Below, piece by piece: positions 45,311 to 62,615 of a stretch of 64,000 nucleotides of DNA. Numbering within the stretch: position 1 is the first letter of the stretch; each line of letters starts with the position of its first letter. The notes beneath the pieces are model-generated. The model saw nothing but the letters and a program-made list of their open reading frames with translations, was not told where the DNA came from and did no database searches. Source of the DNA: an uncultured Pseudomonadales bacterium (GTDB taxonomy: Bacteria > Patescibacteriota > Microgenomatia > UBA1400 > MFAQ01); contig CAZMCB010000001.1 in NCBI GenBank assembly GCA_964564895.1, positions 19,689-83,688 of the forward strand. Reading direction: 5' to 3'. Position numbers and translations under genes: made by a program.

Positions 45311-46371
45311 ATAAGAGACTTAATCTTTTTTGAGAATTGATCTGTAGAGAAACTCTCAGATCTTTCACTAAGATTTGAGAAAATAGTCGCAAGTTTTTTG
45401 GGGTTGTTGATTAGAACACTAGTTTCTTTGGCCATTTCTTCTGGAGTATTGCAAAGAACACCAGTGTCAGGGGTTATTATTTCTTTTTGGCCACCTTTGG
45501 CAATAACAACTGGTATACACCCGGCCGACATTGCTTCGACTGTGGTCATACCAAAGTGCTCGACTTTTTCGGGGTCTGTTTCTTCGTCTATTTCAAACCC
45601 TGCGGCGTGCCAAAAAAACTTAGACTTGGCATAGAGAGATTTTAATTTATCAAAGTCAGGATTTACTAAAAATTTGATTGATAGAGAGCCGGCTTGTTTT
45701 TTGAGAAGCGCTAGAGTGTCCGAGGTGTTGTTGCTTCCTCCCGCTAGAAATAGCTCGTAATCGGGATTAGTTTTGTTTAGGATACTGAATGCTTTGATCA
45801 GTACATCTTGGCGCTTTGAGTGACTGGGAGAATCAAATCTGGCAACAGAGAGAATGATGTTTTCTTTTGTACCTTTTTGGAAACTTGCGGTATCAATAGG
45901 AGGATAAAGCACAAAACTTTTTGTTTTGGGGAGGTGCTTTTCGTGTACAGCAGCAGTGAAACGTGAGTTGTAGACAAATTTGTTGACGAATAAAGTTTTG
46001 ATGGCATTAGTGAATGAACCACCTCCTAGTGTTTTGAAGGGAACTTGAAAATGAACTAAATTGTTTCGAGAAAAAAGGAAAGGCAAACTACCATCGCTTA
46101 CCCAAAATATTAATCCATAGCGCATAGTAAAAAACAGTTTTTTGAAGAAGGAAGTTTTTTGAGTAAAAATATCAAAGGCTTTTTTGTTTAGCTTTAAACC
46201 TTCTAAGTTTAGACCGAATCTCTCTTCTGCTTTTTTTAGAGTGTCTGAGTCTTTCCATGCAATCTCTACTCGGAATCCTAAATTAATTAACTGAGCTGCA
46301 AACGTAAGAGAATAGCGCTCTCCTCCGCCAAGAGTGTCTAAATATGGATCGAAAATTATGGCTTTTTTCAT
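45307..46371 (-). CDS. GT4 family glycosyltransferase
   Basis: EHFGMTTVEAMSAGCIPVV is an EX7E motif. Start taken at MKKAIIFDPYLDTLGGGE (46371), a classic GT4 N-terminus. The ORF-track start at 46410 overlaps the upstream gene. Confidence 0.75.
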   Translation of the reverse strand: MKKAIIFDPYLDTLGGGERYSLTFAAQLINLGFRVEIAWKDSDTLKKAEERFGLNLEGLKLNKKAFDIFTQKTSFFKKLFFTMRYGLIFWVSDGSLPFLFSRNNLVHFQVPFKTLGGGSFTNAIKTLFVNKFVYNSRFTAAVHEKHLPKTKSFVLYPPIDTASFQKGTKENIILSVARFDSPSHSKRQDVLIKAFSILNKTNPDYELFLAGGSNNTSDTLALLKKQAGSLSIKFLVNPDFDKLKSLYAKSKFFWHAAGFEIDEETDPEKVEHFGMTTVEAMSAGCIPVVIAKGGQKEIITPDTGVLCNTPEEMAKETSVLINNPKKLATIFSNLSERSESFSTDQFSKKIKSLI

Positions 46372-46372
46372 T

Positions 46373-47818
46373 TTATTTTTCAAATCGATAAAGATATAAG
46401 GGGTATTCACTAACCCTCCACATATTGGTTATTGTACTGCCTTTGAATGACTCTATCTCCCATGCTTGGTCGTTTCTAAGGACCTCTGGGTCTTCGGTTG
46501 CAGAAACTACATACAAGACCTCACTTTGAGGGAATTTATCAAAGGGGTATAGAGTCATGCCATTTATAAGAGCCATGTCACGAAAACGTTGACCATAGAG
46601 ATTAGAGTCTGGACTAGCTAGTGCAGCTACGTTGGTCTTGGGATTTTGTTCTAATATAATATGTTTTGTGACGTTTCTAACCGCCTCTATGTCTCCTTGC
46701 CATGTGTAGCTTTTGAGAAGATTTACGGCGCTATTTAGGCTAATGACTAGTAGTATTCCAAGTATTATTTTGCCGTAGATATTTTTATAAAGGGAGAAGA
46801 AACGCAGAAAGAATAATATCGCTAGAGGCACTTGAGCATACTGATAATGGGGATAAGTAACAGTAACAAAACCAAAGAAAATAAAGGAGACAAGAAGTGA
46901 GAGGAAGGAGTAACTTAGATATTTGTCTTTTCTGTGGACCAAGAATATCCCGACGAAAATTAAAAAGAAAATTATGGTGACAAAAAGATTATTTGGAACG
47001 AAGTAATTTGAAAAGACAACTAAAGAGTTCCAGAGCCTCTCAAAAAAGCCAGCAAAAGAAAGAGACATAAATGATTTTTCATTGGCTGAAAGGAAGGCCG
47101 TAGAGTTAAAGAAAAAATGATTCTTCATCTCGAATAATACAAAGGGGATGATGGCGAAAGAGAAACCGAGTAGTGTGAGGAAGATTTTTTTGATGGCTCC
47201 TTTGGTTCCTTTGTAAAGAAGTGGAAGAAAAATAATAATCGGTAATACCACGATTGCCGCTAAATAATGATGATAAAGAGCAGCACCTAGTGATAGACCT
47301 CCAAGAAAAACGAGAATCGGATTTTTAAACGATAGTGAGAAAACAAAAACACTTAACCAAAAGATAATGGGGTTTGGATTCCAAGCCCATCTGGAGGCAA
47401 CCATGACTGGCGAAAGGCTAGCAATTAGCAAAGATAGAAACAATGCTTTTTTGGTTTTTCCAAATGTTTTTACTATCACAATTGTTAGAAGTAACCAACC
47501 AAGTACACCATAGAACGCGGCCATGTAGGCAGGCCCTAAGGGATCAAAATTTGTAAGAACTGTAGCGGGCATGTACATGTAGTAACTTAGCGATGGGAAC
47601 ATTTCCAGTCTGTCTTCGGAAATAGGACCAACAAAAGTAATTTGTTTGAGATCCCAGATACGATGCATATCAACTAGAGCTCTGGACTCATCCCAGATAA
47701 AACGAGAGTTTTTTTCGAGATTGTAGGTATAAAGAAAAACAACTAAAAAACCTAAAACAAAAAAGAGCCAGTATTTTTTTATAAAGGAAATTATTTTGTT
47801 CATTTTTCTTTTTGCCAT
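46373..47818 (-). CDS. Polytopic membrane protein, PMT_2/ArnT-like GT-C
   Basis: 481 aa. IWDESRALVDM is an acidic first loop. About 12 TM helices. Confidence 0.5.
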   Translation of the reverse strand: MAKRKMNKIISFIKKYWLFFVLGFLVVFLYTYNLEKNSRFIWDESRALVDMHRIWDLKQITFVGPISEDRLEMFPSLSYYMYMPATVLTNFDPLGPAYMAAFYGVLGWLLLTIVIVKTFGKTKKALFLSLLIASLSPVMVASRWAWNPNPIIFWLSVFVFSLSFKNPILVFLGGLSLGAALYHHYLAAIVVLPIIIFLPLLYKGTKGAIKKIFLTLLGFSFAIIPFVLFEMKNHFFFNSTAFLSANEKSFMSLSFAGFFERLWNSLVVFSNYFVPNNLFVTIIFFLIFVGIFLVHRKDKYLSYSFLSLLVSFIFFGFVTVTYPHYQYAQVPLAILFFLRFFSLYKNIYGKIILGILLVISLNSAVNLLKSYTWQGDIEAVRNVTKHIILEQNPKTNVAALASPDSNLYGQRFRDMALINGMTLYPFDKFPQSEVLYVVSATEDPEVLRNDQAWEIESFKGSTITNMWRVSEYPLYLYRFEK

Positions 47819-48621
47819 TCCTCTAGCAGATCTTGATCAACTTTTTTGTATGTATCAGATAGCGATGGTTTTCTCTGAGCTTCCCAAAGACGCTCGTAGG
47901 TCAAGAACTTACTGAACATCTGGTAGATAATCTCTATCCAGCCTTCGGTACCATCTCGCCATAGCCCCTGCTTTACTGCACGATACCAAAACTCGGTGAG
48001 CATAATGCGGATAAAGCGCCAACCTTTCATGGGAGGATGACCAGCATCAAGAAGCATCTGGGCTTCCATCTTTGACCACTTCATCGTATTAGGTACTTTT
48101 TCATCGATGTTTTTGTGGGAAAGATGAACCATCTGATGACGCAGATCACCTATGGGACCCACGATCTTAGGCTGCTCATGAAGCTTACCTTCCCAGCGCT
48201 TAAGGGCGGTCTTTTTCATGAGACGCAGGACTCTCGGATCTCCCCAGTGATTAAGGTGTTTGCCTAAAAATATTTCGTAGCGACTAATGGTGTAGGCCTG
48301 GAACTGTGGTTCTTCTATTGTGGCCATTATTTCCCTCGCGAGCTTAACAGGAATGCGTTCATCCGAGTCGAGGTATAGCAACCATTCTCCTTTGGCTTCT
48401 TTGGCACCGCTATTGCGCCATTTGGAAAAACTATCCCCCGTTTCATGAACAACTTTGGCACCTAATTTGAGACAAATATCGACTGTGTTGTCTGTGGAGC
48501 CAGTATCGACGACAATGACCTCTGAGACGAACTGTGAGGTCTTGATCGCTGGTATTATTTCGTCTGCAACATTTTTGGCAAGGATAATGATGGATAGTTT
48601 TTTCATATTTTTTTGATCCAC
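47800..48621 (-). CDS. GT2 family glycosyltransferase
   Basis: LSIIILAKNVADEIIPAIKTS...VIVVDTGSTDNT and LDSDE are GT-A motifs. Confidence 0.75.
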   Translation of the reverse strand: MDQKNMKKLSIIILAKNVADEIIPAIKTSQFVSEVIVVDTGSTDNTVDICLKLGAKVVHETGDSFSKWRNSGAKEAKGEWLLYLDSDERIPVKLAREIMATIEEPQFQAYTISRYEIFLGKHLNHWGDPRVLRLMKKTALKRWEGKLHEQPKIVGPIGDLRHQMVHLSHKNIDEKVPNTMKWSKMEAQMLLDAGHPPMKGWRFIRIMLTEFWYRAVKQGLWRDGTEGWIEIIYQMFSKFLTYERLWEAQRKPSLSDTYKKVDQDLLEEWQKEK

Positions 48622-49514
48622 GATCCGCCACCTAAGTTTCTTGAAAAAAAGTCTCGGACGGCTTGTTTCTGGGCTTTGGTTCCAATAAATAATTTCTTGA
48701 TTGCTTCTCTTATGAGCGCAAACTTGGTTCTGGGTTTAGCGTAGTCCATGCCAAAGAGAAGGCGATTTCTGGTTAGGAAATAATCGTTTAAAGGCGAGCC
48801 AATACCAGAGCTTTGGGCCACCTTGTGCCATAGCTTGATCTCGGAATCGATGATTAACTTGTAGCCGGCTTTCTTAATACGCATACCCAGATCGGAGTCT
48901 TCGAAGTATAAACAGTATCGCTCGTCAAAAAGACCCACCTTCCTTAAGATATCGGCTTTGGTGATAAATAAACAACCAGTAATAAAATCGGTTTCTCTCT
49001 GACCATCGAACTGACCTTTGTCTACTTCATTTACCCCAATGTGCTTGGCATAGATATTGTCCCAGTCGTACTCCCCTCCTGCATACCAGATGACTTTTCC
49101 TAACTCGTCTTTTTTGTACTTGTCTTCGAACTCAAAGCCTTTGGCAAAATAGATCAAACCACCCACAACTCCCGTCGAGTCATCAGAGATGGGTGAGGCT
49201 AATATCTTTAGTATTAAGTCTTCGGGAACGACTGTGTCGTTGTTTATGAGAACAATGATGTCTACACCATCAGCCAATGCTTTTTTGAAACCTAGATTGT
49301 TTCCTGCAGCAAAGCCTACATTTCCTGGGCTTTCGACGTAAACTGCTTGAGGATATTTTTCTAGTTTTTCTTTGAGCTCATCTGATCTGTCATTATCTAC
49401 AACGTAGACTGTAGAGGTGACCCCTAAAGGAAGAGTGTTTTTCTCGAGCTGCTTAACTACTTCCAAGGTATCTTCTATGCTATGGAAACTGACAGTGATA
49501 AAGCCTATTTTCAT
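48603..49514 (-). CDS. GT2 family glycosyltransferase (WbbL/rhamnosyltransferase-like architecture)
   Basis: FITVSFHS...VVDNDRSDE and LINNDTVV are GT-A motifs. 303 aa. Confidence 0.7.
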   Translation of the reverse strand: MKIGFITVSFHSIEDTLEVVKQLEKNTLPLGVTSTVYVVDNDRSDELKEKLEKYPQAVYVESPGNVGFAAGNNLGFKKALADGVDIIVLINNDTVVPEDLILKILASPISDDSTGVVGGLIYFAKGFEFEDKYKKDELGKVIWYAGGEYDWDNIYAKHIGVNEVDKGQFDGQRETDFITGCLFITKADILRKVGLFDERYCLYFEDSDLGMRIKKAGYKLIIDSEIKLWHKVAQSSGIGSPLNDYFLTRNRLLFGMDYAKPRTKFALIREAIKKLFIGTKAQKQAVRDFFSRNLGGGSWIKKI

Positions 49515-49783: not shown

Positions 49784-50701
49784 CTATTTAGTCAGCTTGC
49801 GGCGGAGCTTGAGGAGGAAGCGTTTGGCTTTGGAGGGCTGGTCTTGGATGAGGACGGTGAGATACCAGTACTGAAGCTCTTTGAATTTTTCTAGGAAAAG
49901 CTTTTGCCAGATGGGAGTGAGGTAGCCGGGGCGTTTTGGTTCGTGACCTTCGGCCTGCCAGACCTTGAGATAGACAAGCATGATCGAAAACATCTGCAAG
50001 AAAGCCAAGACTAGTCCGTGCAAGCCATCCTTGTAGCCATCGCCAGCAAAGAAGCGACTGATAAATTCACTGATTGGTTTGCCAATAAGATCCTTAACGT
50101 CGAATTTGTAGCCAGAGTTTTGCAACTCTTTGGCTTGCTGAGTGGAGTAGCGAAGAGCTCTCTCAAAATACTCGTCTATAGAGTTGTAATGAAAATGCTC
50201 GATGGCTAAAGATTCCTCAGCTTCTAAATTGATACCGGTTCCTGAAGTGATTGGAATTGAGTGAATTTCATTTTGCCATTCTACGGCTCCTTTTTTGAAA
50301 AATCTGATGTTGTAATCTGGCCACCAACGAGAATGCTCGGTCCATTGACCAAAGATAATATTTTTTCTTGGTACCCTTACAAAATCTACTTTATCTTCTT
50401 CGGTAATTTCGATAAGTTTTTTGGCTAGAGACTTGGGAATTCGCTCGTCGGCGTCAAGTATTAGTACCCAGTTACCAACGGCTTTACTGATAGCAAAGTT
50501 TCTTGCTGGCTCGACGTAACCAACCATTTTATGGTCGTAGATTTTATCAGTGTATTTTTTGGCGATATTGACGGTGTCATCAGCAGATTCCATATCAACA
50601 ACGATTATTTCATCAGCGAACTGGAGTGACTCGAGACAAGCAGCAATATTTTTTTCTTCGTTTCTGGTGTTTATTACTGCTGAGATATTTATTTTGGACA
50701 T
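49784..50701 (-). CDS. GT2 family glycosyltransferase
   Basis: ISAVINTRNEEKNIAACLESL...IIVVDMESADDT and LDADE are GT-A motifs. Confidence 0.75.
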   Translation of the reverse strand: MSKINISAVINTRNEEKNIAACLESLQFADEIIVVDMESADDTVNIAKKYTDKIYDHKMVGYVEPARNFAISKAVGNWVLILDADERIPKSLAKKLIEITEEDKVDFVRVPRKNIIFGQWTEHSRWWPDYNIRFFKKGAVEWQNEIHSIPITSGTGINLEAEESLAIEHFHYNSIDEYFERALRYSTQQAKELQNSGYKFDVKDLIGKPISEFISRFFAGDGYKDGLHGLVLAFLQMFSIMLVYLKVWQAEGHEPKRPGYLTPIWQKLFLEKFKELQYWYLTVLIQDQPSKAKRFLLKLRRKLTK

Positions 50702-50702
50702 A

Positions 50703-53700
50703 TTAAAGAGTTTTGTAGATATTAATTTCGGCTGATTCGAAAATTCTGACCATAGGCATAGAACACGGACTGAGTCTCATTAGATTGAGAGGTGTCTCGT
50801 ATATATATTTTATTTCATTTTTTGCAAGAAAGTTTTTTGCCCAGTCTAGATCAGTCGTGTTATAGAAACGCTGGATATCTTTTGCCCTTTGCTGATAGTT
50901 GTAACCAGTGATATCAAGGTTTATGGTATCGGAAAGGAACTCTGGCTGGCCAGAGAGAGCAGAGATGTAAGCTGTGGAGTTGTAAGCATATAGTGGTTTG
51001 GGGGGAAGAATATGACCAGCTAATTGATTGTCAAAGTATGGGGCCAAGACAACTCCTTTTGGTTGAGTCTTTAAAAATTCTAGAGCACGAAGCTCGGTGT
51101 AACTCACCCTTGAGGATGGCTTGAAACTAGTGTGTTCTCCGATTGAACCAATGGTGGTTAAAAGCGTACAAAGAACTAACAATACAATCATCAATATTTT
51201 GACAAAACGAGAATGTATTTTATTTATATAAAACATTACTCCCCTGCCGGCAAAGAGACCAAAAACAAATAACGAGTAATACATAAACTGAATACTGTTC
51301 CAAGGATTGTACTTTTGGGTAAGAATCATAGGGATTAAAATGCCAACTAGAGAGATAGCTATAAGTATTCTCTGAGAGAGGAAAGAGTTTTTGCCTTTTA
51401 TTATTTGCCAAACTCCAAAGAGACGAGTGCCAATATTGCCAATGAGGAAAACTATTACTCCGAGAAGATTAACTATTAATAATTTTATGGTTGATCCCGT
51501 GGCTTCATAAGCTTGCCAAGCATTGGCGACCTTTTCAAAGTTTAATCTGTCGCTTGAAGCAAACATGCTCTTGATAAACCAGAAGGGAGAAAATTCAAAT
51601 GGGAAACCAGCAGATGAGCTAAAAGGTAACGTAATGAGAACCCCTAACAATCCGATTAATATAAGGAACAACCATTGACCAGTTAACAAAAGACCGGCAG
51701 AGAGAAGGATGAATGCATAAACCTTTGTCTGCGCCAGAAGACCTCCAAAAAACACAATTCCAGCAAACTTTAGAGTGCTTTTCTTCTCAAAGTATTTTTC
51801 AAGAAGGAAAAGAGTGACAAGCAAAAAGAGAACTGAGAGAGCATACGGTGGATTAAGGAAAATGGAAAAAGATTGATTTGCCCAGAAGGCAGATTCACCA
51901 CCAAAAATGCTATTTCCGGAAAGAAGTGATGGAAGGAATCCGAGAGATCCCGCAAGGTAGACAAATAATAAGGAAATTATTATTTCTATCTCTTTGAACT
52001 TCCATAGTCTTAGGAGCTTGATGATGAAAAAAGTAAGGAGAATGGCTATCACTAGAGGCAAAAAGAAAAAGAATATTTGAGATGATGGAATATGTGTAAA
52101 TCGAACCAAAAGACCGGCAAAATAATCAAAAACAAAATGATAATTCCCCAACTTCTCCCCTGCCAACTGAGGGTGAGATAAAGATAGAGGATTTTCGGCT
52201 ATCTTTTCGATGAGTGAGAGGTGAAAGACTGCATCATGAGAGTTTGAACCCCAGTAACCCAGTCCAAAGGGGTAAAGCTTGCTATCTTTGTAGACTGCAA
52301 TTAAGGGAATTAGTGAAATTAGTGATCCAATTCCAAAAGTTTTGTTTATCAAAAAACAAAAAATTATGACAAGTAAAACAATTGTAATTTGAAAAATCGG
52401 TTTTGAAAATAGAGATGTAAAAGGAGTCTTTGGGGCAACAGTCCAAGCCACCTCGTTTTTCTTTGTTGTTTCTTTAATGTTTTTAAAGTCTGTGTGCGGT
52501 ACAGCAATATTTGAGAAAGTTATCGTTTTTGGAGTAAGGGCTATTTTTTTGTCTCCATTTACTAAGGCGATATTCCAAATATCACTTTTTTCATCATAAA
52601 GAGTCTCGTACTTTTCTAAATCAATGTTTAAAGCGAGAGCGGTTTCTGGATTTTTGACCGAGTCAATCTCGGCTGGAATTTCGGCGGAAATTCCGTAGTA
52701 TTGATTTGGAGTGGCAATATAGTCTTCGTAAATTTCACGATTGTATACTCTGAAGTCAATTATCTTTGTTTGGCCATTTTGAGCCTTTAGGCCTAAGCGA
52801 TAAAAGGGGGTTTGGTACCATATCACTTCACCAGGTTCGTTACTTGTGGGGTCTGCGGTGCGGTAAAAATACACTGGGCTGCTTTCCGGATATAGAGATT
52901 TCATCCAGTCACCAAAATATTCTAAGCTTACAAAACGAATATTATATTTTTCCTGATTGGCTTTTATGGTGGAGTAAATATGTCTTATTTCTGGAAGATA
53001 ATCTCCGGTAAGAACATCATTTTCTAGACCGATATTGATATATGTAAATTTATTTAGATCTTTTTGAGTGTAAAGCGCGAAAACATGATCAAAAAAACTC
53101 GATGATTGGCCAACCATTTGATACTCATTTGGCTGTATCGAATAAAGGGAAGTCCTTTCGGGATTAATTATATTGAAAAGATCTCGTTGGGCGAAACGCA
53201 CAACTGGAATATTGACTCGATTTTTGAAACTCTCGGCTGGAATAAGTGAGTTATTTTTGTCTGGGAAATATGGACTTCCGATATAGCCTCCCCAAAGTCT
53301 TGTACCTCTCATCTGATATTGATCATCAAGAATCATAGCAGTCTGAACAGAGTATTTAGTTTTTAGATAATCGAGAGAAAAACTATCAAGATGCCAAGCC
53401 CCGACAGTGCGAGGGAAGAAACCAAAACGCTCCTTAAACGAGCTCATAAAAGCATCAATGATAAGAAGTCTTTGATCTGGTGTGTATCCTGAAAGGAAGG
53501 TTTCATTAATACCGCCTCCTGAATAAATATTCACCTTTTGGGTTAGCTTGGGAGTAACTTCGAGCAAGCCCCCTAGTGAAACTAACTTATCTGGACCAAT
53601 TAGTTCGCTGAAAAAAGCAGAAATTGTGGCGTCATTTACAGCATCAAAACGAAGTAGCCATGTGGATGGTAAACCAGAATGAGAGGACTCTTCATATAAT

Positions 53701-53864
53701 TTAATTGGAATATCTAAAGGTTTTTGAGTTTTACTTAGCCATCCTTCGGATCCCCTGACAGGATTAGTAAGGGTGACGAAAGTAGGACCGGTATATGCCA
53801 GAGACTTAATTGGAAAAATAAAAAAGAAAAATATTGATAGAAATAAAAATAGCTTCTTAATCAT
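50703..53864 (-). CDS. Giant fusion protein: signal peptide, ~480-aa extracytoplasmic domain (possible carbohydrate-active/esterase-like fold), then a ~570-aa polytopic GT-C-like membrane domain
   Basis: 1053 aa. The N-terminus MIKKLFLFLSIFFFFIFPIKSLA is a signal peptide. A hydrophilic stretch runs to about residue 490, followed by about 14 TM helices and a ~150-aa C-terminal tail. Confidence 0.5.
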   Translation of the reverse strand: MIKKLFLFLSIFFFFIFPIKSLAYTGPTFVTLTNPVRGSEGWLSKTQKPLDIPIKLYEESSHSGLPSTWLLRFDAVNDATISAFFSELIGPDKLVSLGGLLEVTPKLTQKVNIYSGGGINETFLSGYTPDQRLLIIDAFMSSFKERFGFFPRTVGAWHLDSFSLDYLKTKYSVQTAMILDDQYQMRGTRLWGGYIGSPYFPDKNNSLIPAESFKNRVNIPVVRFAQRDLFNIINPERTSLYSIQPNEYQMVGQSSSFFDHVFALYTQKDLNKFTYINIGLENDVLTGDYLPEIRHIYSTIKANQEKYNIRFVSLEYFGDWMKSLYPESSPVYFYRTADPTSNEPGEVIWYQTPFYRLGLKAQNGQTKIIDFRVYNREIYEDYIATPNQYYGISAEIPAEIDSVKNPETALALNIDLEKYETLYDEKSDIWNIALVNGDKKIALTPKTITFSNIAVPHTDFKNIKETTKKNEVAWTVAPKTPFTSLFSKPIFQITIVLLVIIFCFLINKTFGIGSLISLIPLIAVYKDSKLYPFGLGYWGSNSHDAVFHLSLIEKIAENPLSLSHPQLAGEKLGNYHFVFDYFAGLLVRFTHIPSSQIFFFFLPLVIAILLTFFIIKLLRLWKFKEIEIIISLLFVYLAGSLGFLPSLLSGNSIFGGESAFWANQSFSIFLNPPYALSVLFLLVTLFLLEKYFEKKSTLKFAGIVFFGGLLAQTKVYAFILLSAGLLLTGQWLFLILIGLLGVLITLPFSSSAGFPFEFSPFWFIKSMFASSDRLNFEKVANAWQAYEATGSTIKLLIVNLLGVIVFLIGNIGTRLFGVWQIIKGKNSFLSQRILIAISLVGILIPMILTQKYNPWNSIQFMYYSLFVFGLFAGRGVMFYINKIHSRFVKILMIVLLVLCTLLTTIGSIGEHTSFKPSSRVSYTELRALEFLKTQPKGVVLAPYFDNQLAGHILPPKPLYAYNSTAYISALSGQPEFLSDTINLDITGYNYQQRAKDIQRFYNTTDLDWAKNFLAKNEIKYIYETPLNLMRLSPCSMPMVRIFESAEINIYKTL

Positions 53865-55368
53865 GTTTTAGTCGAAAGTAACTGAGAGTATCTTTGATAA
53901 AAGATTTTCCCTCAACTAGAATAATTGTTCCAAAATAGACACTAGCTGAAATTAAACCAATAATTATTAGTCGAGTGAAAGAGTTTCCGTATTGAATCGT
54001 AAATACTAAAAATGAAGACATCAAAAATGTTGCTGCCAATGGAGTTTTTAGAATGTTTAATAAATTGAAGTGAACATATTTTCTTGCCAAAAGAATGGTC
54101 ACGAAAGAAGAAGTGGCAATGATAGCGACTGCATATGAAACTCCAAGGTACCCAAATTTAAGAGATAAGAATGGCATGGTAAGCCATGTAAGACCGGTCC
54201 ACATAAGCATTAGTTTGAAGGTGGACTTGATGTGACCTGTTGCGTTTAAAAGGTTGGTGAGACTAGTGGAAATACTCGCCCAAGCGGAGTTGTATAGATA
54301 AATATACAAAGGAATTAAAGCGGGAAGCCATTTGGCATATTTAGGAATCAGGTTTACTAGAGGTAAGGCAAAAAATCCCATACCAACCAAAATTGGGAAG
54401 GCAGCCAGACACATGTATTTCAGGCTGACCTCTACGGCTCTTGCGAGTCTATCTTTATCATGTTGGAGTCTTGCGAAAGTTGGGAAACTAACTTTTGTGA
54501 GGTTGTCCATGACAATTCTTAATGGGAGACCAGCCCAACGACTTGCCCAGCCGATATAACCCAGACCTGTTGTTCCGATTATCCTTGTAAGAATAATCGT
54601 CATGCCGTCGTCTTTTAGTACAGCAAGGAATGTATTGGCTTGATATGGAAGACCAAAACGAAGGAGAGATTTTAATGATTCTTTGTAGATACCAATTACT
54701 GGCTTCCAAGGATAGACAATATACATCGTGATAAGTCCAACGAAACCTCTAGCTAGGACGGCAAAAGAAAAGGAGGATACGCCGAAACCTTTCCAAGCAA
54801 AATATACGGCTACTACATTGAAAGCTAAGGTTTCAAGTATCTGAGGAAGAATTAGTTTATTAAACTTGATTTCTCTCTCGAGCATGATTGAAGGAATTGT
54901 TTTGAGCGAACTAAGGAAAAGTGAAATACCCATGGCATAGAGAAGATACATACCTGACTGGTCAATGTTGTATTGGGTACGGATTAAAGATCTTAGTAAA
55001 AACAAAACCAAAAGAAGTAAAAATACTAAAATTTGCTGAATGGTGAAAGTAGTTGCCAAGTCTTTTTTGGTGATGGCTTCCTTTTTTTGAATAAGGGCTG
55101 CAGCAAGACCAATATCTGAGAAATATGCCAAGAAATTTACAACTGAAGAAACTAGATAAAATATTCCGTATATATTTGGATCAAGAAAGATTGTGAGGGC
55201 GAGCGTTGCAAGAAAAGTTATTATCTGAACAATAAAGGTTCTAGATATTAGAGCCAAAACACCAGACACGGATCGACGTTTTATTTCGTTTACCTCCATA
55301 GAGACTCCTGGTTCAGCGACGTTTTCCACGAATTTGAAGTTTTGATTGTTTGATAATAAGGAAGACAA
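53857..55368 (-). CDS. Wzx-like flippase / polysaccharide biosynthesis protein (MOP superfamily)
   Basis: RRSVSGVLALISRTFIVQIITFLATLALTIFLDPNIYGIFYLVSSVVNFLAYFSDIGLAAALIQKK is a canonical Wzx N-terminal block. About 12-14 TM helices. The alternative start at 55299 (MEVNEIKRR) avoids overlap with the upstream gene. Confidence 0.65.
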   Translation of the reverse strand: MSSLLSNNQNFKFVENVAEPGVSMEVNEIKRRSVSGVLALISRTFIVQIITFLATLALTIFLDPNIYGIFYLVSSVVNFLAYFSDIGLAAALIQKKEAITKKDLATTFTIQQILVFLLLLVLFLLRSLIRTQYNIDQSGMYLLYAMGISLFLSSLKTIPSIMLEREIKFNKLILPQILETLAFNVVAVYFAWKGFGVSSFSFAVLARGFVGLITMYIVYPWKPVIGIYKESLKSLLRFGLPYQANTFLAVLKDDGMTIILTRIIGTTGLGYIGWASRWAGLPLRIVMDNLTKVSFPTFARLQHDKDRLARAVEVSLKYMCLAAFPILVGMGFFALPLVNLIPKYAKWLPALIPLYIYLYNSAWASISTSLTNLLNATGHIKSTFKLMLMWTGLTWLTMPFLSLKFGYLGVSYAVAIIATSSFVTILLARKYVHFNLLNILKTPLAATFLMSSFLVFTIQYGNSFTRLIIIGLISASVYFGTIILVEGKSFIKDTLSYFRLKHD

Positions 55369-57019
55369 TAGAAATCCAAGCTACTAATGAAATTATATTG
55401 GATATTCGACGAACGGGAGTGTCTAGGTATTTAATGGTAAGGAAGTGGTCCCCTGCTGGGACAAAGACTTTCATAGCACCGTACTGATCGAGAATTACGT
55501 CAACTGGCTTGTTGTCTATAGAAATATCCCAGCCCGGATAATAGAAGACATTTATATTGATGAAGCTATCGATGTCTGAGCTTATGCTTGCTTTGGTGTT
55601 GAAAGGATTGGAATCAGTGATGTTTATTTGTGCAGCTTGAAGAATCGATGTCACTCTGGCGCTGGGAACATCTGTGGGTCTTGTTGCATTAACTGGCAGG
55701 GGCATGTAGTTTTCGGTGTAATCAAGATATTCCGAGGAGACTTTTTCACCTGATTGAAGGACCTGATTAGGTAAGTATCTTCTTAAGAAATAATTATCGG
55801 GAGTGGCGGTAATTTCTCCTGGGCGAAAGTAGGCGACGGTAAGAGAAAATGAGGCAATTATTATTATCGAAGAAAAAATTGCTAAAAGTTTTCCGGAAAT
55901 ATTTTTTATGAAAAATACAAAGAGAACGGCTGAGAGAATAGTGGTAATAGAAAGTAATCTCCAAGGGAACTGTATGGCGTTGGTAAAGGGAAAAATATTC
56001 CAGATAAATGAGGACCTGATATTCATCATAAAAATAACAAAGAAGGTGGCGAGGATTGTGGCTATCAAGTATCCTTTTTCTGCTTTTTTATTTCTTACAG
56101 ACTTAATGATTAATAAAACAATAGCTGCAAGAAGTACGACCAAATTTACTATGCCAATTTGGAAAGACATATCATCATATGGTCCCCAGTTTGAAGCTCC
56201 ATAACCCCATGGTGAGTATATTAGTTGCCAGATAAAGGGGAAATGATCGTAAAGATTGAAAGGAAGAACTTCTTTGATAAAACCTTTTTCAGCAAAAACT
56301 GGAATCAAATAATATGAGGTGAGGAGAAAGGATGAAAAAAGACCAGCAAAAACACTTAATATAAATTTGTAATTTCTACGAAGAAGCTCGACCAAGAAAT
56401 AAATGCCAACTAATATTGGTAGCCCAAAAGCGGTAGACGGTTGATGGGAAAGGATAAGTAAAGAAACTGAAATGCCTAAAAGTAGGATATTTTTTAGATT
56501 TTGTTTTTCTTTTAGCCTAGCTAGACTGTATAAAATCCAAGGGAAAATGGCTAAAGCAAAGGACTCTCCGATTGTGCCTCTGACATAAACATCAATCGCT
56601 CTATAAGGGGTATAGGTGTAAAGAACGGCAGCGGCTAAAGAGGCAAAAGAAGTGGTGTATTTTTTGGCAAAAAGATACATACCAAATGCGCCAATGAAAA
56701 GAGATAAGGCTAAAGTAAGAGTGTAAGAATAAAAAAGTGAAAAGCCGACCTTATTAAATAGGTATCCTATGTAATATGGAAGCTGATAATTGAACTCTGG
56801 ATATGGAGAGCCATAAGTAAAATGAACATCCAAAGCCCAACGTGGAGGAAACTGGCCCAGATCAATGGTTTGGATATACTGATGGAGATTTACTATCTGA
56901 GATTCATCGTGGAAAGTAAAACTAAAAGGAGTAACTAGCTTGATGGCAGCCGGAATAATTGCCAGAATCAAAAGAATGGGAATAATTTTGGATAGTTTAT
57001 CGAGTATTTTTTTTATCAT
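55313..57019 (-). CDS. Polytopic membrane protein, HDD...PxRW...GYGxPxFNYY...PYY family (paralog A), putative GT-C
   Basis: FTFHDESQIVNL...FPPRWALDVHFTYGSPYPEFNYQLPYYIGYLFN. 568 aa with a C-terminal soluble domain. Confidence 0.5.
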   Translation of the reverse strand: MIKKILDKLSKIIPILLILAIIPAAIKLVTPFSFTFHDESQIVNLHQYIQTIDLGQFPPRWALDVHFTYGSPYPEFNYQLPYYIGYLFNKVGFSLFYSYTLTLALSLFIGAFGMYLFAKKYTTSFASLAAAVLYTYTPYRAIDVYVRGTIGESFALAIFPWILYSLARLKEKQNLKNILLLGISVSLLILSHQPSTAFGLPILVGIYFLVELLRRNYKFILSVFAGLFSSFLLTSYYLIPVFAEKGFIKEVLPFNLYDHFPFIWQLIYSPWGYGASNWGPYDDMSFQIGIVNLVVLLAAIVLLIIKSVRNKKAEKGYLIATILATFFVIFMMNIRSSFIWNIFPFTNAIQFPWRLLSITTILSAVLFVFFIKNISGKLLAIFSSIIIIASFSLTVAYFRPGEITATPDNYFLRRYLPNQVLQSGEKVSSEYLDYTENYMPLPVNATRPTDVPSARVTSILQAAQINITDSNPFNTKASISSDIDSFININVFYYPGWDISIDNKPVDVILDQYGAMKVFVPAGDHFLTIKYLDTPVRRISNIISLVAWISIVFLIIKQSKLQIRGKRR

Positions 57020-58697
57020 GTGGAGCTACGGCAATAACTAAACTCAATAATAACGAAATAAAAGTAATGATGTTTGCTACTTCTCTCGTGCGGGTATTTT
57101 CAAAGTACCCTTGGACTAGTGTAATACCTTTATCAAAAGTAAGTGTGATTTCTCCATGGTCTTCCCCAATCTGATATACCGTGGGTGTAACACTGCTGTT
57201 TAAATACACTTTCCAGTCTGGAAAGGCTGAGATGGGGAATGAAACCGTTGCCTGACCAAAAGAAACATCTACGTCTGCTGAAAAATAAGCTGATCTTTTC
57301 TGGAAATTTTTTACTTCTGCTAATCCGGAAAGTACTACTGGATTGCTTGGAGCTATCTTTTCGGGAACGGAGACCATAGATAAAGGACGATAATCAAAGA
57401 AGGCAGATTTTTGGCTTTGTTCGAACACTTTTCCTGATAGATAAGTTTCGTCTGTAGCACTTGGACTAGACTTATCAAACTTGAAGAAACGAAAATTTAG
57501 AAATAACAAAGCAAAAACGAGAAGTAGGGTGAGTAGTTTTTGAGTTTTTTGTCCGAATGAGCTAATAAAAATGGCCAAAACTACAGCGGAGCTAAGCGCA
57601 ACTAAGCCTAAAAATCTCCAAGGGAACTGGACGAAAGATAGAGGTGCAATTAGCTCCCAAATAGCGATAGATCTTATGGTTGTGAGGAAAATAGCAAAAA
57701 GGGCAAAACAAAAAAATGTAATTAAGAGAATTTTGGAGGTTTTTGAAAGTGACTTTCTTTTGATAAATAAAAATATCGGTGTAACGACTAAAGCTAACGT
57801 CTGAACTATACCAACAGCAAAAGAGATCTTGTCGTTTGGACCAAACTCACTGGCACGATATCCCCAACTTTGTTTGATAAACAGTTGAGATAGAGTAGCA
57901 AAATGAGCTCGAAAATCAAAATAACCACTAGTAAGGAATCCGGTATCTACCAAGTTATTTTCGAAAATTACTGGTAGTAAGAAAAATGAGGCAATACCTA
58001 AACCAAGCACAGCAGAACTAAAAAGTAGTGAAAAAGATTTGATTTTTTGTTTGTTTATAAAAATCATGATGATGGCAAATACGGCGATGAAGGGGGAAGA
58101 AATTAAAGTGGTGATGTTGTGAGTACTAAGGAAAAGACCTAGGATTAGCGAGAGAAAAGCAAGATTAATTTTGGTTTTGTTGATAATTAATTTTGTGATT
58201 CCGAATAGAACTAACGGCAATAGTGCCAGAGCGAAATTTTCGGCGAGAGCTCCCCTTACAAAAATTTCAAGAGCACGAAAAGGAACCAAAATATAGGCAA
58301 CCCCTCCAATGAAGCTTGGCAGAATTGGAACAAACTGTGAAAGGAATATAAACATGGCGATTCCAGCAAGAGCTATCGAAATAAACATGACTATTTTGAC
58401 TGAATCAATTAGAGAAAAACCAAGATTGTTAAAAATTGCACCGACGTAATATGGAGTGGCAGAGTAATAGTTAAACATGGGTTGACCGTATCCATAACTC
58501 ATGTCTGGGGACCAACGACAAGGAATTTGACCATCATTTAGGCAACGTTTCATTTCGTAAAGTCGCATAACTTGTAAGTCGTCGTGCATAGAGAAAAAGC
58601 CTGGTTTGAAAATATTCCAAGAAACTAAAACGGAAATTAATAGCAGGCCGATGATGGCAATTAACTTTTTATTCATGTTTTCTTTTGAAGATGGCAT
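56997..58697 (-). CDS. Polytopic membrane protein, same family (paralog B)
   Basis: FFSMHDDLQVMRLYEMKRCLNDGQIPCRWSPDMSYGYGQPMFNYYSATPYYVGAIFN. Confidence 0.5.
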   Translation of the reverse strand: MPSSKENMNKKLIAIIGLLLISVLVSWNIFKPGFFSMHDDLQVMRLYEMKRCLNDGQIPCRWSPDMSYGYGQPMFNYYSATPYYVGAIFNNLGFSLIDSVKIVMFISIALAGIAMFIFLSQFVPILPSFIGGVAYILVPFRALEIFVRGALAENFALALLPLVLFGITKLIINKTKINLAFLSLILGLFLSTHNITTLISSPFIAVFAIIMIFINKQKIKSFSLLFSSAVLGLGIASFFLLPVIFENNLVDTGFLTSGYFDFRAHFATLSQLFIKQSWGYRASEFGPNDKISFAVGIVQTLALVVTPIFLFIKRKSLSKTSKILLITFFCFALFAIFLTTIRSIAIWELIAPLSFVQFPWRFLGLVALSSAVVLAIFISSFGQKTQKLLTLLLVFALLFLNFRFFKFDKSSPSATDETYLSGKVFEQSQKSAFFDYRPLSMVSVPEKIAPSNPVVLSGLAEVKNFQKRSAYFSADVDVSFGQATVSFPISAFPDWKVYLNSSVTPTVYQIGEDHGEITLTFDKGITLVQGYFENTRTREVANIITFISLLLSLVIAVAPHDKKNTR

Positions 58698-60405
58698 AAA
58701 GGCAAAGTGGAAGAAAAATAATTGTCAGGATATTTCCAACAAGACGAACTGGTGAGTTTGTAAGACGAGCATAGATTTGGTGTTCTCCTTTTGGAACTTT
58801 GAAAGTAATTAAGCCTAACTCATTGTTGTGATCTATGGCAACCTTTTTGCCGTCGACTTTGACTACCCAACCTGGAAAATCAAAAAGAGATAGAGTAACA
58901 GTGGTGTCTTCTGAGTTTTGTAGTGTAAAGCGTTGCCAGTTTGTCCCTTTAGTGAAGAAAAGAAAATCAGCAAAACCATTGGATACTACCGGAAGGTTTG
59001 GTGCGGGGCTGGTGGGTGGATGAGAAGCAAAAATTGGGAGGTAGTCGTAGATACTTGTGGTCATCTGTTTGTCCCAAGTGATTCCGGAGTATTTTTCTTC
59101 AATTGTTATATTGAACCATTTTGAAGGAGTGAAAAAAGAGAGATTTAGAAGCACTAAAAAGATAATCGTTGTTCCAATGATTATTAACGATTGCTTTGTC
59201 TTTTGACCTACTAGGATAGAGCCTGCGATTACGGCAAAAAAAGTATTTGCCAGTACTAAAAAGCGCCATGGGAATTGAAGGTATACAAGAGGAGTGGCTA
59301 TTGTCCAGATAAAGGAAGATTTTTCGTGGGTCATGAAGGAAGTAAAAAGACCAAGAATAAAAAATGTTAGAACAATAGAGAATATTTTTTTATCTTTTCG
59401 AGCGTATTTGAGAAAAGCAATAACTAAAGCTGTAAGTACAAAAATAATGATAATAGGCCCAAAGAAAAAAGATAGATCATCATGAGGACCAATAACTGAT
59501 GAGCCAACTCCCCAAAAAGTTGAGGTAAATAGCTGACTGATGGATACGAAATGTGCCCGATAATCAAAGTATCCTCCTAACATTGTTTCTGTGTGAGCAA
59601 ATTGTTTTTCCAGTACTACGGGCAGGAAGAAGAAAGCAGCAATAAGTCCTCCCCAGACTAGTGATAGACCAAATTTGAATATATGAACTAGCGTTGTTTT
59701 GTTGATTCTGAGCTTGTCGTATTGAAAAAGAAAAACTAAAAACAATATCACTAATGCTGGAGAAAAAATGAGGGTGCTTATATTGTGACTTAGTATTAGT
59801 AAACCGAAAGAAAGAGCTAGTAAAGCTGATTTTTTTATGGTGAACTCTTTGGCTAGATTGTATGAAGCAAGAATTACAAGAGGAATAAACACAAAGGCCC
59901 ATGACTCACCCATAGCACCACGAGAGTAAAGATCGGATGCTCGATATGGAGCATAAGCATAGATTAGCGCCGATAATACTCCACCCCACCTACCCCAAAG
60001 TCTATTTCCGAGCAAAAACATAGCTAAATTTCCAAGTATCAGGGAAAGAATAAAACCCAATTTGACTGAATCAAAAACACCAACCCCCAAAAGATTCGCA
60101 GCGGCCATGACGTAATAACTAAATGGTCCGTAGTAATTAAACTGAGGATAACCGTAGGCATAACCCATGCTAGGTACCCACCGACAAGGAATCTGAAAAT
60201 CTTTGATGCACTTGACCATCTCGGTCACACGGATTGCTTGCATATCATCGTGCATGGCGAATGTACCGGGCCTAAAAAGAGAGGTGACAGTAGGAAGAGT
60301 AAGAACAACAACTAAGAAAGGCAATAACCATTGCTTGTTTTTTAGGAAAAAATTTTTTAAGCGATCCTTAATACTCATAGAATTGCAGAGCCTCCGCGGT
60401 GCCAT
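58669..60405 (-). CDS. Polytopic membrane protein, same family (paralog C)
   Basis: TFAMHDDMQAIRVTEMVKCIKDFQIPCRWVPSMGYAYGYPQFNYYGPFSYYVMAAAN. Confidence 0.5.
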   Translation of the reverse strand: MAPRRLCNSMSIKDRLKNFFLKNKQWLLPFLVVVLTLPTVTSLFRPGTFAMHDDMQAIRVTEMVKCIKDFQIPCRWVPSMGYAYGYPQFNYYGPFSYYVMAAANLLGVGVFDSVKLGFILSLILGNLAMFLLGNRLWGRWGGVLSALIYAYAPYRASDLYSRGAMGESWAFVFIPLVILASYNLAKEFTIKKSALLALSFGLLILSHNISTLIFSPALVILFLVFLFQYDKLRINKTTLVHIFKFGLSLVWGGLIAAFFFLPVVLEKQFAHTETMLGGYFDYRAHFVSISQLFTSTFWGVGSSVIGPHDDLSFFFGPIIIIFVLTALVIAFLKYARKDKKIFSIVLTFFILGLFTSFMTHEKSSFIWTIATPLVYLQFPWRFLVLANTFFAVIAGSILVGQKTKQSLIIIGTTIIFLVLLNLSFFTPSKWFNITIEEKYSGITWDKQMTTSIYDYLPIFASHPPTSPAPNLPVVSNGFADFLFFTKGTNWQRFTLQNSEDTTVTLSLFDFPGWVVKVDGKKVAIDHNNELGLITFKVPKGEHQIYARLTNSPVRLVGNILTIIFLPLCLYAIFKRKHE

Positions 60406-61867
60406 CTATCCTAGCCGGCTTGGGATATTCTTTGATTAATTTCAAACGTTCCACAATTGAAGGCTGCATGTGATTTCTGGATTTGTTGATTACAAAGTAT
60501 CTTTTGTTTTTTGGATCTGTGTTTACTAAACCTTCAGGAATAGTGATAATCGAAGGATTGGAACCGACGATGGTGATATTGCTGTGACCGTTGGTGTAGA
60601 TTTGAAGGCCATCAGGAAGAGTACCAAAAAAACCTTCAGTAAAAACCACTACGTTCTCCCCTTTTGATTCTTGTTCGATTAAATATGCTGCAACTTCTTT
60701 TTGGCCCCAGCCTGCAGTCCATTCCTCAAGATACCCATTGCGCATATCGAAGGAAAGAGGGGCTTTGGTTGGTGTAAAAACACTAAGAATAGAAAAAACT
60801 AATGGCACAACTACAAGAATAAACGACGAAAGTTTAATTAGAATCCCTTTTCGAGTAACTAACCAGTTTAGGCCGATACTAATAATTGGTACAAGAGGTA
60901 AAACAGCAAACAATGCGTAACGACTGGTGTAAACCTTTGCAATGGAACCTTGGGCGACAAGAGGGAGAAGTGAAACCAACAGTAGAAAGAGCGATGTCAA
61001 ACGGGTTTTTTTGGGAATGAAGCCAAAAATTAGAGCAAGTAATAGTGTTGGTGAAAAAAGTAACCATAACCAGTTTATGGTTTTTGCTAAATTATTTAGA
61101 AGAGGGTCTAGTGGATGCCTTAGGATCTCTTGCCAAGTAAATAAATAGTCTTGATTTCGAGCTCCAATCATTTGGAATGCCGGCCCAAGACGAAGAATGC
61201 CATACATCAGCTGAGAAATTACGATAACTGCAAACAAACCTAGACAGAGATTAACGAAAGATTTTAGTTTGTCAGCTTTGGGGCGAAAAAAGAAAACTAA
61301 AGCGACCGCGAGCCAAGCGTAAAAGAAAATCGCGGGCGATTTTGTAAGAAGCCCTCCACCAAGAGCAAATCCTAAAATCATGGCGTGGTCGAGTTTTCTG
61401 GTTTTGGCAAAAAGAGCAGAAAGGCCAAGCGACCAAACACCAAACATGGCTAGCATTGAGTCTGCGAGTGCCATCCGATCGAAAAACACTGAAAATGGAA
61501 GTACCGAATACGTAAGAAGAGTAAGAGCGACAACAAGAAAATTTCCAAAAAGAACATACGAGAGAAAACCTAGACCTAACAGAGTACCAAAGCCTGTAGC
61601 TACGGAAACAAGGCGACCAGCAACCAATGGATCATCTGTTAGTTTAAAAAATGGAATAGTGGCCCACATAAAGAGTGGTTGTTTACCATCTGTTTGGGGT
61701 AAAAATCTAAGGCTCGCTTCGTTTTTCATGACCTGAGACCAGCGAATATAGATGGCTTCATCAACGAAAACAGGAATATTATTTAGCTTTGAGAGTCTTA
61801 AAAAAAAGAACAAGCCAAAAGCCAGAAGAGAAATAAGAATTATCCAGAATGTTTTATTTTTGATCAT
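60368..61867 (-). CDS. ArnT/PMT_2-like GT-C glycosyltransferase
   Basis: NNIPVFVDEAIYIRWSQ is a DE first-loop motif. The N-terminal 370 aa are polytopic and a C-terminal ~120-aa soluble domain follows. A 14-nt overlap links it to the upstream DPM1-like GT2. Confidence 0.6.
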   Translation of the reverse strand: MIKNKTFWIILISLLAFGLFFFLRLSKLNNIPVFVDEAIYIRWSQVMKNEASLRFLPQTDGKQPLFMWATIPFFKLTDDPLVAGRLVSVATGFGTLLGLGFLSYVLFGNFLVVALTLLTYSVLPFSVFFDRMALADSMLAMFGVWSLGLSALFAKTRKLDHAMILGFALGGGLLTKSPAIFFYAWLAVALVFFFRPKADKLKSFVNLCLGLFAVIVISQLMYGILRLGPAFQMIGARNQDYLFTWQEILRHPLDPLLNNLAKTINWLWLLFSPTLLLALIFGFIPKKTRLTSLFLLLVSLLPLVAQGSIAKVYTSRYALFAVLPLVPIISIGLNWLVTRKGILIKLSSFILVVVPLVFSILSVFTPTKAPLSFDMRNGYLEEWTAGWGQKEVAAYLIEQESKGENVVVFTEGFFGTLPDGLQIYTNGHSNITIVGSNPSIITIPEGLVNTDPKNKRYFVINKSRNHMQPSIVERLKLIKEYPKPARIDGTAEALQFYEY

Positions 61868-62615
61868 ACAATCCTTTTAGATCATTAATTTTGACGCTTA
61901 AAATTTGTTTTAACATGTCAGTTGATTCCTTGAAAAACCTTTTGTCCTTCCCTGTAGAGGTGTCTTCGTCTTTCCACTCAACATCGACTTCCTTTAAACG
62001 ATTGCCGTATTTTTCGGCTAAGAAAAGTAGTTCGACATCAAACGCAGAAACCGACCATCCCTTGGAGATTTTTTTATCTGACATAACGGAAAGTTTGGGA
62101 AAAATTTTCTTGGCGACTGCCGTATTAAAAGCTTTGAAGCCACACTGTGTATCGACAACATCACGGAGTAAGAATAAACCTCGTACAAAGCGAAAACCCC
62201 ACGAAGTGAGCTGACGGTACCAAGGAAAGTTGGCTCTGGCTTTGCCACGAGAACCAAAAACAACGGTGTAGCCTTCATCGAACCAAGGGAGTAGTTTTTC
62301 TACTTCTTTGAGAGGAGTTGATTGATCCATGTCGGTAAAAAGGACGATTTCACCTTTGGCAGCTTTTATGCCGGCGTAAACTGCTTTGGCCTTGCCACCA
62401 TGTGGATTAGGAAGGACTCTAAACCCCGAATGACTTCTGGCGAAAGTTTGCGCAATCTCTCGGCTGCCATCGGTAGAACCATCGTCACTGATGATCACTT
62501 CGTAGTCGTAGCTAACTTTTTTGAGATATGTGTAAACTTCTTCAAGAACTCCCCTATCAAGATTTTCTTTTTCGTTGAAGTTTGGGATGACAATCGATAG
62601 TTTTATTGCTGACAT
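61854..62615 (-). CDS. GT2 polyprenol-phosphate glycosyltransferase (DPM1/ArnC/GtrB-like)
   Basis: LSIVIPNFNEKENL...VIISDDGSTDGS...FTDMDQSTP are DPM1/ArnC-type motifs. 253 aa, soluble. Confidence 0.8.
   Translation of the reverse strand: MSAIKLSIVIPNFNEKENLDRGVLEEVYTYLKKVSYDYEVIISDDGSTDGSREIAQTFARSHSGFRVLPNPHGGKAKAVYAGIKAAKGEIVLFTDMDQSTPLKEVEKLLPWFDEGYTVVFGSRGKARANFPWYRQLTSWGFRFVRGLFLLRDVVDTQCGFKAFNTAVAKKIFPKLSVMSDKKISKGWSVSAFDVELLFLAEKYGNRLKEVDVEWKDEDTSTGKDKRFFKESTDMLKQILSVKINDLKGLYDQK

Follow-up and report, generated by a model that had tools for sequence, protein, structure and literature searches.

The window analysed in this study, a stretch of 64,000 nucleotides (nt) from contig CAZMCB010000001.1 (assembly GCA_964564895.1), encodes a tandem triplet of polytopic membrane proteins, here called paralogs A, B and C, which belong to the Pfam family PF10131 (PTPS_related) and lie within an envelope-glycan operon conserved among Microgenomates. 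Sequence comparison and analogy with known systems favour, at a probability of roughly 70%, the reading that A, B and C are active, functionally distinct glycosyltransferases of the GT-C fold that extend or decorate a flipped envelope glycan, each through a linkage of its own. The narrower statement that the three are GT-C glycosyltransferases with an outward-facing active site deserves more confidence than this overall picture, and the particular donor and acceptor deserve less. The three genes, with product lengths in amino acids (aa), are:

58669-60405, minus strand: paralog A, 578 aa, predicted PF10131-type GT-C glycosyltransferase of the A/B type, with the Cys pair described below
56997-58697, minus strand: paralog B, 566 aa, predicted PF10131-type GT-C glycosyltransferase, the copy used for the structure model
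55313-57019, minus strand: paralog C, 568 aa, the most divergent copy (HDE, PPRW, without the Cys pair), a member of the C-type clade

The three open reading frames (ORFs) are adjacent on the minus strand with small mutual overlaps. Full-length identity in a MAFFT alignment is 35% between A and B and 29% between A and C, with 83 columns invariant across all three copies, and BLAST E-values among orthologs and paralogs range from 1e-44 to 1e-155, a similarity far above chance. The initial annotation of the window had described three consecutive paralogs of about 570 aa at 55313-60405 that share an HDD...PCRW...FNYY...YY block after the first transmembrane helix (TM1); both observations hold, as ORFs of 566-578 aa with 29-35% identity occupy exactly this span and direct translation reveals the block in each of them. 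With the listed start of A, the ATG at 60405, A and the upstream PMT_2 gene share 38 nt (60368-60405). A second ATG at 60378, inside ATGAGTATTAA, straddles the stop codon of the PMT_2 gene and has a GGAGG 12 nt ahead of it; this is probably the true start, giving a product of 569 aa, and the arrangement suggests translational coupling of A to the PMT_2 gene.

The fold assignment was obtained from an AlphaFold2 model of B, built from an alignment of 64 sequences, with a mean predicted local distance difference test score (pLDDT) of 94.9 and a predicted template modelling score (pTM) of 0.94. The first 33 Foldseek matches of this model were all GT-C proteins (AftD, EmbA/B, PglB, AglB, STT3, AftA, Pmt4, ArnT and ALG3/9), and the matches beyond them were transporters of the major facilitator superfamily at a probability below 0.11. 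Two fold searches of the model agree on GT-C, with structural matches that include ALG12, ALG9, ALG3, AftA, AftB, AftD and EmbA. Run against the PDB, the sequence profile of the family returned nothing relevant, the best match being a mannose-6-phosphate receptor at an E-value of 0.37; the only tie between this family and solved structures came from fold comparison. The model contains 12 membrane helices and a cytoplasmic N-terminus, in keeping with the 7-13 helices and N-in orientation of GT-C enzymes. The loop after TM1 (residues 31-95) holds short helices typical of the first outside loop of GT-C proteins, and a beta-sandwich of about 125 residues (405-535) is placed on the outside, ahead of the last helix.

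The topology of the model agrees with the distribution of charged and conserved residues along the chain. Lysine and arginine together make up 25-48% of inside loops versus 4-7% of outside loops and are abundant at both termini and in the short odd-numbered loops, and the mean frequency of the commonest residue per column is 0.54-0.76 in outside loops versus 0.35-0.50 in helices. Two cysteines of the first outside loop, C52 and C60 (B numbering, used throughout), are either both present (159 of 217 family members) or both missing (58 of 217) and never single, with Pro replacing the second Cys in the Cys-less C-type clade (PPRW). Such all-or-none covariation is expected of a disulfide, and the putative C52-C60 bond fits an extracytoplasmic loop. 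From the charge bias, the loop conservation and the strict pairing of the cysteines, both termini are predicted to be cytoplasmic and the motif loop to lie outside. Combined, the fold and topology results bear out two proposals made at first sight of the sequence, namely similarity to GT-C folds and an acidic loop on the periplasmic rather than the cytoplasmic face.

The motif block starts 8-12 residues past the first helix (in the model of B, TM1 spans 4-30 and HDD is at 38-40), and a second conserved element, QFPWR, follows further along the chain. Their positions are:

60112-60258, minus strand: motif block of A in the first outside loop, read by translation as AMHDDMQ..QIPCRW..GYAYGYPQFNYYGPFSYY, holding the candidate catalytic Asp
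60112-60258, minus strand: the same block of A in shorter notation, AMHDD...QIPCRW...PQFNYYGPFSYY
58446-58592, minus strand: first-outside-loop motif block of B, SMHDDLQ..QIPCRW..SYGYGQPMFNYYSATPYY, residues 36-84
56771-56917, minus strand: first-outside-loop motif block of C, TFHDESQ..QFPPRW..FTYGSPYPEFNYQLPYY, including PEFNYQLPYY
59263-59277, minus strand: QFPWR motif of A at the outer end of TM10, its Arg a candidate donor-phosphate ligand
57615-57629, minus strand: QFPWR motif of B, residues 357-361
55958-55972, minus strand: QFPWR motif of C, located by translation and conservation

Conservation was assessed over 217 family members from 82 loci. Residues D39, P59, R61, P139, R148, G149, E153, P161, H193, P242, W347 and the QFPWR stretch (357-361) are invariant in all 217, every one of them within or bordering an outside loop, and an alignment of the three copies indicates that A, B and C each retain the complete set. 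Within the HDD...PCRW...FNYY block itself only D39, P59 and R61 are invariant. Position 38 may be H, Q, S or N and position 40 D, E or L, the acidic motif reading HDD in 132 members, QDD in 25, SDD in 20, HDE in 13 and HDL in 9, and the FNYY part is found in 158 of the 217. GT-C enzymes typically carry a DxD, DD or DE in the first extracytoplasmic loop after TM1, and D39 occupies this place in every member. By sequence, HDD is thus the counterpart in this family of the acidic motif common among GT-C enzymes, with invariance limited to the first Asp; the initial annotation had taken the loop motif for a distinct sequence, and it is instead an ordinary DD/DE variant. The motifs specific to the family are QFPWR and DYLP. 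A conserved Arg ahead of TM10 has been recorded for other GT-C families (PMC7801869), with which the Arg of QFPWR at TM10 agrees.

The initial annotation had assigned the block to no named, characterised family and had suggested COG5617-type predicted membrane proteins as a possible match; by the Pfam scores the family is a named one. All three copies pass PF10131 of the GT-C clan (A 37.0, B 57.8 and C 29.7 bits against a gathering cut-off of 26.4), as do all 64 aligned relatives (E<=0.001). The match is restricted to profile positions 1-317 of 621, equivalent to B residues 75-417, and nothing in A, B or C corresponds to the C-terminal half of the model. At its other end the Pfam model begins at FNYY (B residue 75), leaving TM1, HDD and PCRW outside, the invariant Asp included; the block probably looked unfamiliar because HDD and PCRW precede the start of the model. 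The Microgenomates proteins, A, B and C among them, form a short subfamily of about 560 aa with its own C-terminal beta domain. PF10131 has been listed in the GT-C clan CL0111 with function unknown (PMC7801869). One relative is named "6-pyruvoyl-tetrahydropterin synthase-related protein" at NCBI. A genuine 6-pyruvoyl-tetrahydropterin synthase was ruled out, these being 12-helix membrane proteins with a GT-C fold and the name an annotation relic. NCBIfam holds no model for A, B or C. A search with the family profile retrieved 19,989 cluster representatives (clusters at 50% identity) at E<=1e-3 and 7,318 at <=1e-30, while the family hidden Markov model (HMM) matched none of the other GT-C proteins of the window, including six of the PMT_2 type, even at E<=10. 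The family is thus both very large and distinct.

The triplet forms part of an operon whose genes lie on the same strand, tightly packed, and overlap or abut. The remaining members described here are:

61854-62615, minus strand: GT2, candidate polyprenyl-phosphate-sugar synthase, 253 aa, soluble and without a transmembrane helix, syntenic in most loci
60368-61867, minus strand: PMT_2-family GT-C protein, 499 aa, directly upstream of A, PF13231 at 33.9 bits, syntenic
53857-55368, minus strand: Wzx/MOP-type flippase, 503 aa, directly downstream of C, PF13440 at 170.7 bits, syntenic
50703-53864, minus strand: 1053-aa fusion of a predicted outside deacetylase/glycoside-hydrolase-like domain, a GT-C membrane module and an AglB-like C-terminal globular domain
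49784-50701, minus strand: GT2a, predicted cytoplasmic, by Pfam and synteny
48603-49514, minus strand: GT2b, predicted cytoplasmic, by Pfam and synteny
47800-48621, minus strand: GT2c, predicted cytoplasmic, by Pfam and synteny
45307-46410, minus strand: GT4, predicted cytoplasmic, last gene of the conserved operon, by Pfam and synteny

Five GT-C modules are therefore encoded together, namely the PMT_2 protein, A, B, C and the 1053-aa fusion. The model of the latter (pLDDT 88.7) scores 16.5 against ALG12, 15.9 against AftA, 15.3 against ArnT and 15.1 against STT3B over its GT-C module. Among solved structures, the GT2 at 61854-62615 is closest to the Pyrococcus furiosus dolichyl-phosphate-mannose (Dol-P-Man) synthase 5mlz (2.8e-16), ArnC and GtrB, and its best NCBIfam matches (ArnC, PgfS and a Dol-P hexose transferase) all fall under their cut-offs, as do the NCBIfam MOP flippase matches of the Wzx protein. 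The TTG start of the latter at 55368, which gives a 56-nt overlap with C, may be set too far upstream. Promoter and terminator scans did not rise above shuffled expectation (39 vs 44.2 and 17 vs 15.1, respectively) and yielded no transcript boundaries.

A locus scan with one genome per species returned 235 relatives. The best 80 loci belong to Collier-, Woese-, Davies- and Shapirobacteria and further Microgenomates, the nearest being Microgenomates GW2011_GWA2_44_7 at 79-84% identity. About 60 loci share the order (membrane protein)-(oligoribonuclease)-GT2-PMT_2-A-B-C-Wzx-1053aa-GT2-GT2-GT2-GT4, with a variable number of family copies between PMT_2 and Wzx (one in 7 loci, two in 6, three in 38 and four in 6). 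Many GTDB representative records titled "uncultured Pseudomonadales bacterium" or "uncultured Gammaproteobacteria bacterium" (binchicken co-assemblies) or "Clostridia bacterium" bear the same operon at 35-60% protein identity, among them our loci L004, L005, L006, L008, L016-L018 and L059; because they carry the Microgenomates operon, these titles look like placeholder or wrong taxonomy.

The copies can be followed individually across genomes. Their 1:1 orthologs in Collierbacteria are 50% (A), 41% (B) and 42% (C) identical, as opposed to 27-37% between paralogs within one genome, and the orthologs of A span 47-54% across Collierbacteria loci. Clustering by the unweighted pair group method with arithmetic mean (UPGMA) separates the Cys-less C-type clade (57 members) from the A/B type (159 members). 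The commonest copy order is A/B-type, A/B-type, C-type (43 loci), and loci with a single copy have mostly retained the A type. Since orthologs are closer to each other than paralogs are, the triplication is old and each copy has been maintained, which supports functional divergence and argues against redundancy. The earlier suggestion that the copies have diversified in substrate or linkage is thereby supported as an interpretation. The same data speak to the alternative that at least one copy is non-enzymatic, a dead GT-C-fold partner, scaffold or substrate-presenting subunit comparable to PIG-U of the glycosylphosphatidylinositol (GPI) transamidase or to the inactive halves of some GT-C heterodimers. 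With D39, R61, R148, E153, H193 and QFPWR kept in A, B and C alike, and with the C-type clade likewise maintained across genomes (mean identity about 39%), this alternative appears highly improbable.

Taken as active glycosyltransferases, A, B and C can be fitted to a stepwise scheme in which catalysis itself, the part played by each residue, the identity of donor and acceptor and the sequence of events are proposed by analogy. An outward-facing active site would be formed by the TM1 loop (D39, R61), the second outside loop (R148, E153), H193, E246 and QFPWR at TM10, with D39 as the putative catalytic or acceptor-activating residue and R361 of QFPWR as the likely ligand of the donor phosphate; the outside beta-sandwich probably helps to hold the acceptor. 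First, the soluble GT2 encoded two genes upstream of A would load a sugar onto polyprenyl phosphate. Second, the cytoplasmic GT2 and GT4 enzymes would build a lipid-linked glycan, which the adjacent Wzx would flip. Third, the PMT_2 protein, A, B, C and the 1053-aa fusion would each add a sugar on the outside from a lipid-phosphate donor, at a different position or linkage, so that an envelope glycan is built or decorated. With these GT-C modules and four cytoplasmic glycosyltransferases in one operon, stepwise extension or branching on the outside is the most economical explanation. A, B and C would then form different linkages, comparable in this to ALG3/9/12 or to the Emb and Aft enzymes.

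The composition of the operon also bears on whether A, B and C could instead be oligosaccharyltransferases of the STT3/PglB/AglB type (GT66), which would transfer a Wzx-flipped diphosphate-linked oligosaccharide en bloc to protein or lipid, the copies serving different acceptors. A WWDYG-type motif (WWD or W[WY]D[YW]G) occurs in 0 of the 217 members, so the family is not of the STT3/PglB type by this mark; additionally, STT3 has a large alpha/beta domain on the outside, where A, B and C have a small beta-sandwich of about 125 aa, and TIGR04154, the NCBIfam model for archaeal STT3, gives 15 bits where its cut-off is 450. Within the operon, the GT2 two genes upstream resembles a monophosphate-sugar synthase, three sequential paralogs suit stepwise addition better, and en-bloc transfer would fall more readily to the 1053-aa neighbour, whose C-terminal domain is AglB-like. 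En-bloc transfer by A, B or C is accordingly quite improbable.

The main rival to glycan extension is that A, B and C are protein O-glycosyltransferases, moving single polyprenyl-phosphate-linked sugars to Ser/Thr-rich surface or membrane proteins such as S-layer proteins, pili or adhesins. They would then resemble either the eukaryotic and actinobacterial PMT enzymes or the YfhO-type enzymes PgtC2 and PgfM1, and the copies would differ in their protein targets or in the sugar transferred. Fold scores do not separate this explanation from the favoured one, and YfhO-type enzymes, the streptococcal PgtC2 and PgfM1 among them, do glycosylate proteins (PMC12041528). The operon content favours a glycan pathway, however, and protein O-glycosylation is judged unlikely on balance.

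Several observations weigh against the proposed extension of a flipped glycan by A, B and C. The PF10131 match covers no more than the first 317 of 621 profile positions, and the searchable literature contains no biochemical or genetic study of any PF10131 member; searches for PF10131, PTPS_related, COG5617 and DUF2298 returned only the clan listing and annotation tables, and no paper was found that connects the Candidate Phyla Radiation (CPR) with GT-C. The clustering of the invariant residues in space is putative. Wzx-type flippases usually move diphosphate-linked oligosaccharides, and the flippase of the operon is of this class; no GtrA-type flippase for a monophosphate donor was seen, and the 64-kb window yielded no initiating phosphoglycosyltransferase. 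Finally, the GT2 found fused to some relatives of the family appears by sequence to be rhamnosyltransferase-like and not Dol-P-Man-synthase-like.

These fusions place a cytoplasmic GT2 at the N-terminus of family members in four clusters (P0135, P0136, P0150 and P0191; 821-832 aa) and at two genome loci (L074:9239-11656 and L081:7357-9945). A cytoplasmic partner at this end is consistent with an N-in orientation and connects the family with the synthesis of lipid-linked glycans. The fused GT2 is an ortholog of the window ORF 38116-38928 (37-40% identity), with a rhamnosyltransferase-like NCBIfam match under the cut-off. It was considered as the donor synthase and rejected, being distinct from the Dol-P-Man-synthase-like GT2, and the fusion therefore does not identify the donor. 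Other family fusions involve PMT or PMT_2 modules (P0159, P0162 and P0266) or tetratricopeptide repeats (P0256). Some ORFs contain several copies of the family (P0129, 3329 aa with 6 matched stretches; P0144, 1670 aa with 4; P0121 and P0122, about 1100 aa with 2), and these are either real tandem cassette fusions or gene-calling artefacts.

Nearly all of the window (1-64000) is one glycan island. Apart from the operon genes, it carries genes for sugar-nucleotide tailoring (methyltransferases, an epimerase, a C-methyltransferase, a DegT aminotransferase, an AsnB-like amidotransferase and a short UDP-glucose-dehydrogenase-like ORF), and the island as a whole holds two Wzx flippases, an acyltransferase_3, no fewer than 12 GT2/GT4 genes and some 18 polytopic proteins of GT-C-like type (six PMT_2, two GT87-like, one YfhO-like, one DUF6541-like and several without a Pfam match). 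At 21619-23777 on the minus strand, a small GT2 (222 aa) abuts a PMT_2 GT-C gene (22284-23777), the classical GT-A/GT-C arrangement, here belonging to an extracytoplasmic glycosylation module of its own. Elsewhere among Microgenomates, many loci have a homolog of this 222-aa GT2, or another GT2 with weak likeness to Dol-P-Man synthase, directly upstream of A.

Neither the GT-C nature of PF10131, already on record in Pfam, nor the logic of multi-component glycosylation is new, and general knowledge of GT-C enzymes is unchanged by these findings; their use lies in annotation and in the envelope biology of CPR bacteria. What is new comprises the probable active-site residues, including the Asp outside the Pfam model, the disulfide covariation, the Microgenomates operon with its cassette of 1-4 copies, the GT2 fusions and the deacetylase-GT-C neighbour. 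PF10131 spans about 20,000 clusters at 50% identity, yet the searchable literature shows no characterised member, and the loop with the candidate catalytic Asp falls outside its Pfam model. For characterising the family, this locus offers candidate active-site residues (D39, R61, R148, E153, H193 and QFPWR), a confident model, a putative donor-supplying GT2 and a conserved operon context. Microgenomates keep this envelope-glycan operon of 11-13 genes and five GT-C modules despite genomes of about 1 Mb, which points to an important surface glycan.

The comparison with known systems begins with the PMT_2/ArnT-like proteins (PF13231). In hhalign comparisons with six PMT_2-family GT-C proteins from the window and a Collierbacteria locus, the family aligned at 97.5% probability (E 8e-12) over B 52-236. 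R148 falls inside this region, opposite the invariant R131 (the Arg of the second outside loop), and colinear extension back from the alignment start at B 52 brings D39/D40 within one residue of the invariant D36-E37, as expected if the loop is analogous to the DE/DxD loops of GT-C enzymes, an analogy drawn in the initial annotation. Against the PMT_2 Pfam model, C scores 29.6 bits (cut-off 26.1) and A 16.4, with no match for B; the family differs in its own QFPWR and DYLP motifs and in that its HMM retrieves no PMT_2 protein of the window. The resemblance to YfhO (PF09586) lies in the C-terminal beta domain and last helix. Residues 459-532 of C weakly match profile positions 750-824 of 835, and only C matches, with 20.5 against a threshold of 28.5 bits and over the last 75 profile positions. 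Three of the 64 relatives match as well (best 3.4e-9), but A, B and C are about 300 residues shorter than YfhO, and a separate, true YfhO-like gene is present in the window (39838-42117, 54.9 bits).

Precedents also exist at the level of whole pathways. In YfhO systems such as the CsbB/GtcA/YfhO glycosylation of teichoic acid, a GT-C enzyme works with a GT-A polyprenyl-phosphate-sugar synthase and a flippase (PMC8035078, PMC12041528), and the combination of a cytoplasmic GT-A, a Wzx-type flippase and a GT-C enzyme is known as the type-b system (PMC8035078). The Microgenomates operon likewise encodes a synthase-type GT-A (by homology) and a Wzx flippase together with GT-C proteins. The GacI/GacJ/GacK/GacL system of Streptococcus pyogenes shares the same parts list, with a soluble GT-A lacking transmembrane helices, a Wzx-family flippase and a GT-C enzyme in one operon (PMC8035078). 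It differs from the present operon in having one GT-C module instead of five and no counterpart of the four extra cytoplasmic glycosyltransferases, and in belonging to a different phylum; a small GacJ-like partner was not identified here.

A bolder comparison would make the operon a bacterial counterpart of the lipid-linked-oligosaccharide pathway of the endoplasmic reticulum (ER) and archaea. GT2 and GT4 enzymes would start the glycan and Wzx would flip it, 1-4 PF10131 paralogs and the PMT_2 protein would extend it outside from polyprenyl-phosphate-sugar in the manner of ALG3/9/12, and the 1053-aa protein would edit it and transfer it en bloc to the final acceptor. This proposal is speculative, with the odds against it; if it were true, the copy number of the cassette, 1-4, would set the lineage-specific surface glycan of ultrasmall, probably host-attached bacteria. 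A, B and C have no detectable sequence relationship beyond the superfamily with ALG3, ALG9 and ALG12 of the ER or with the mycobacterial Emb and Aft enzymes, and the likeness is one of logic rather than of membership: in these systems, diverged GT-C paralogs draw on one lipid-phosphate sugar and form different linkages on a flipped, lipid-linked glycan.

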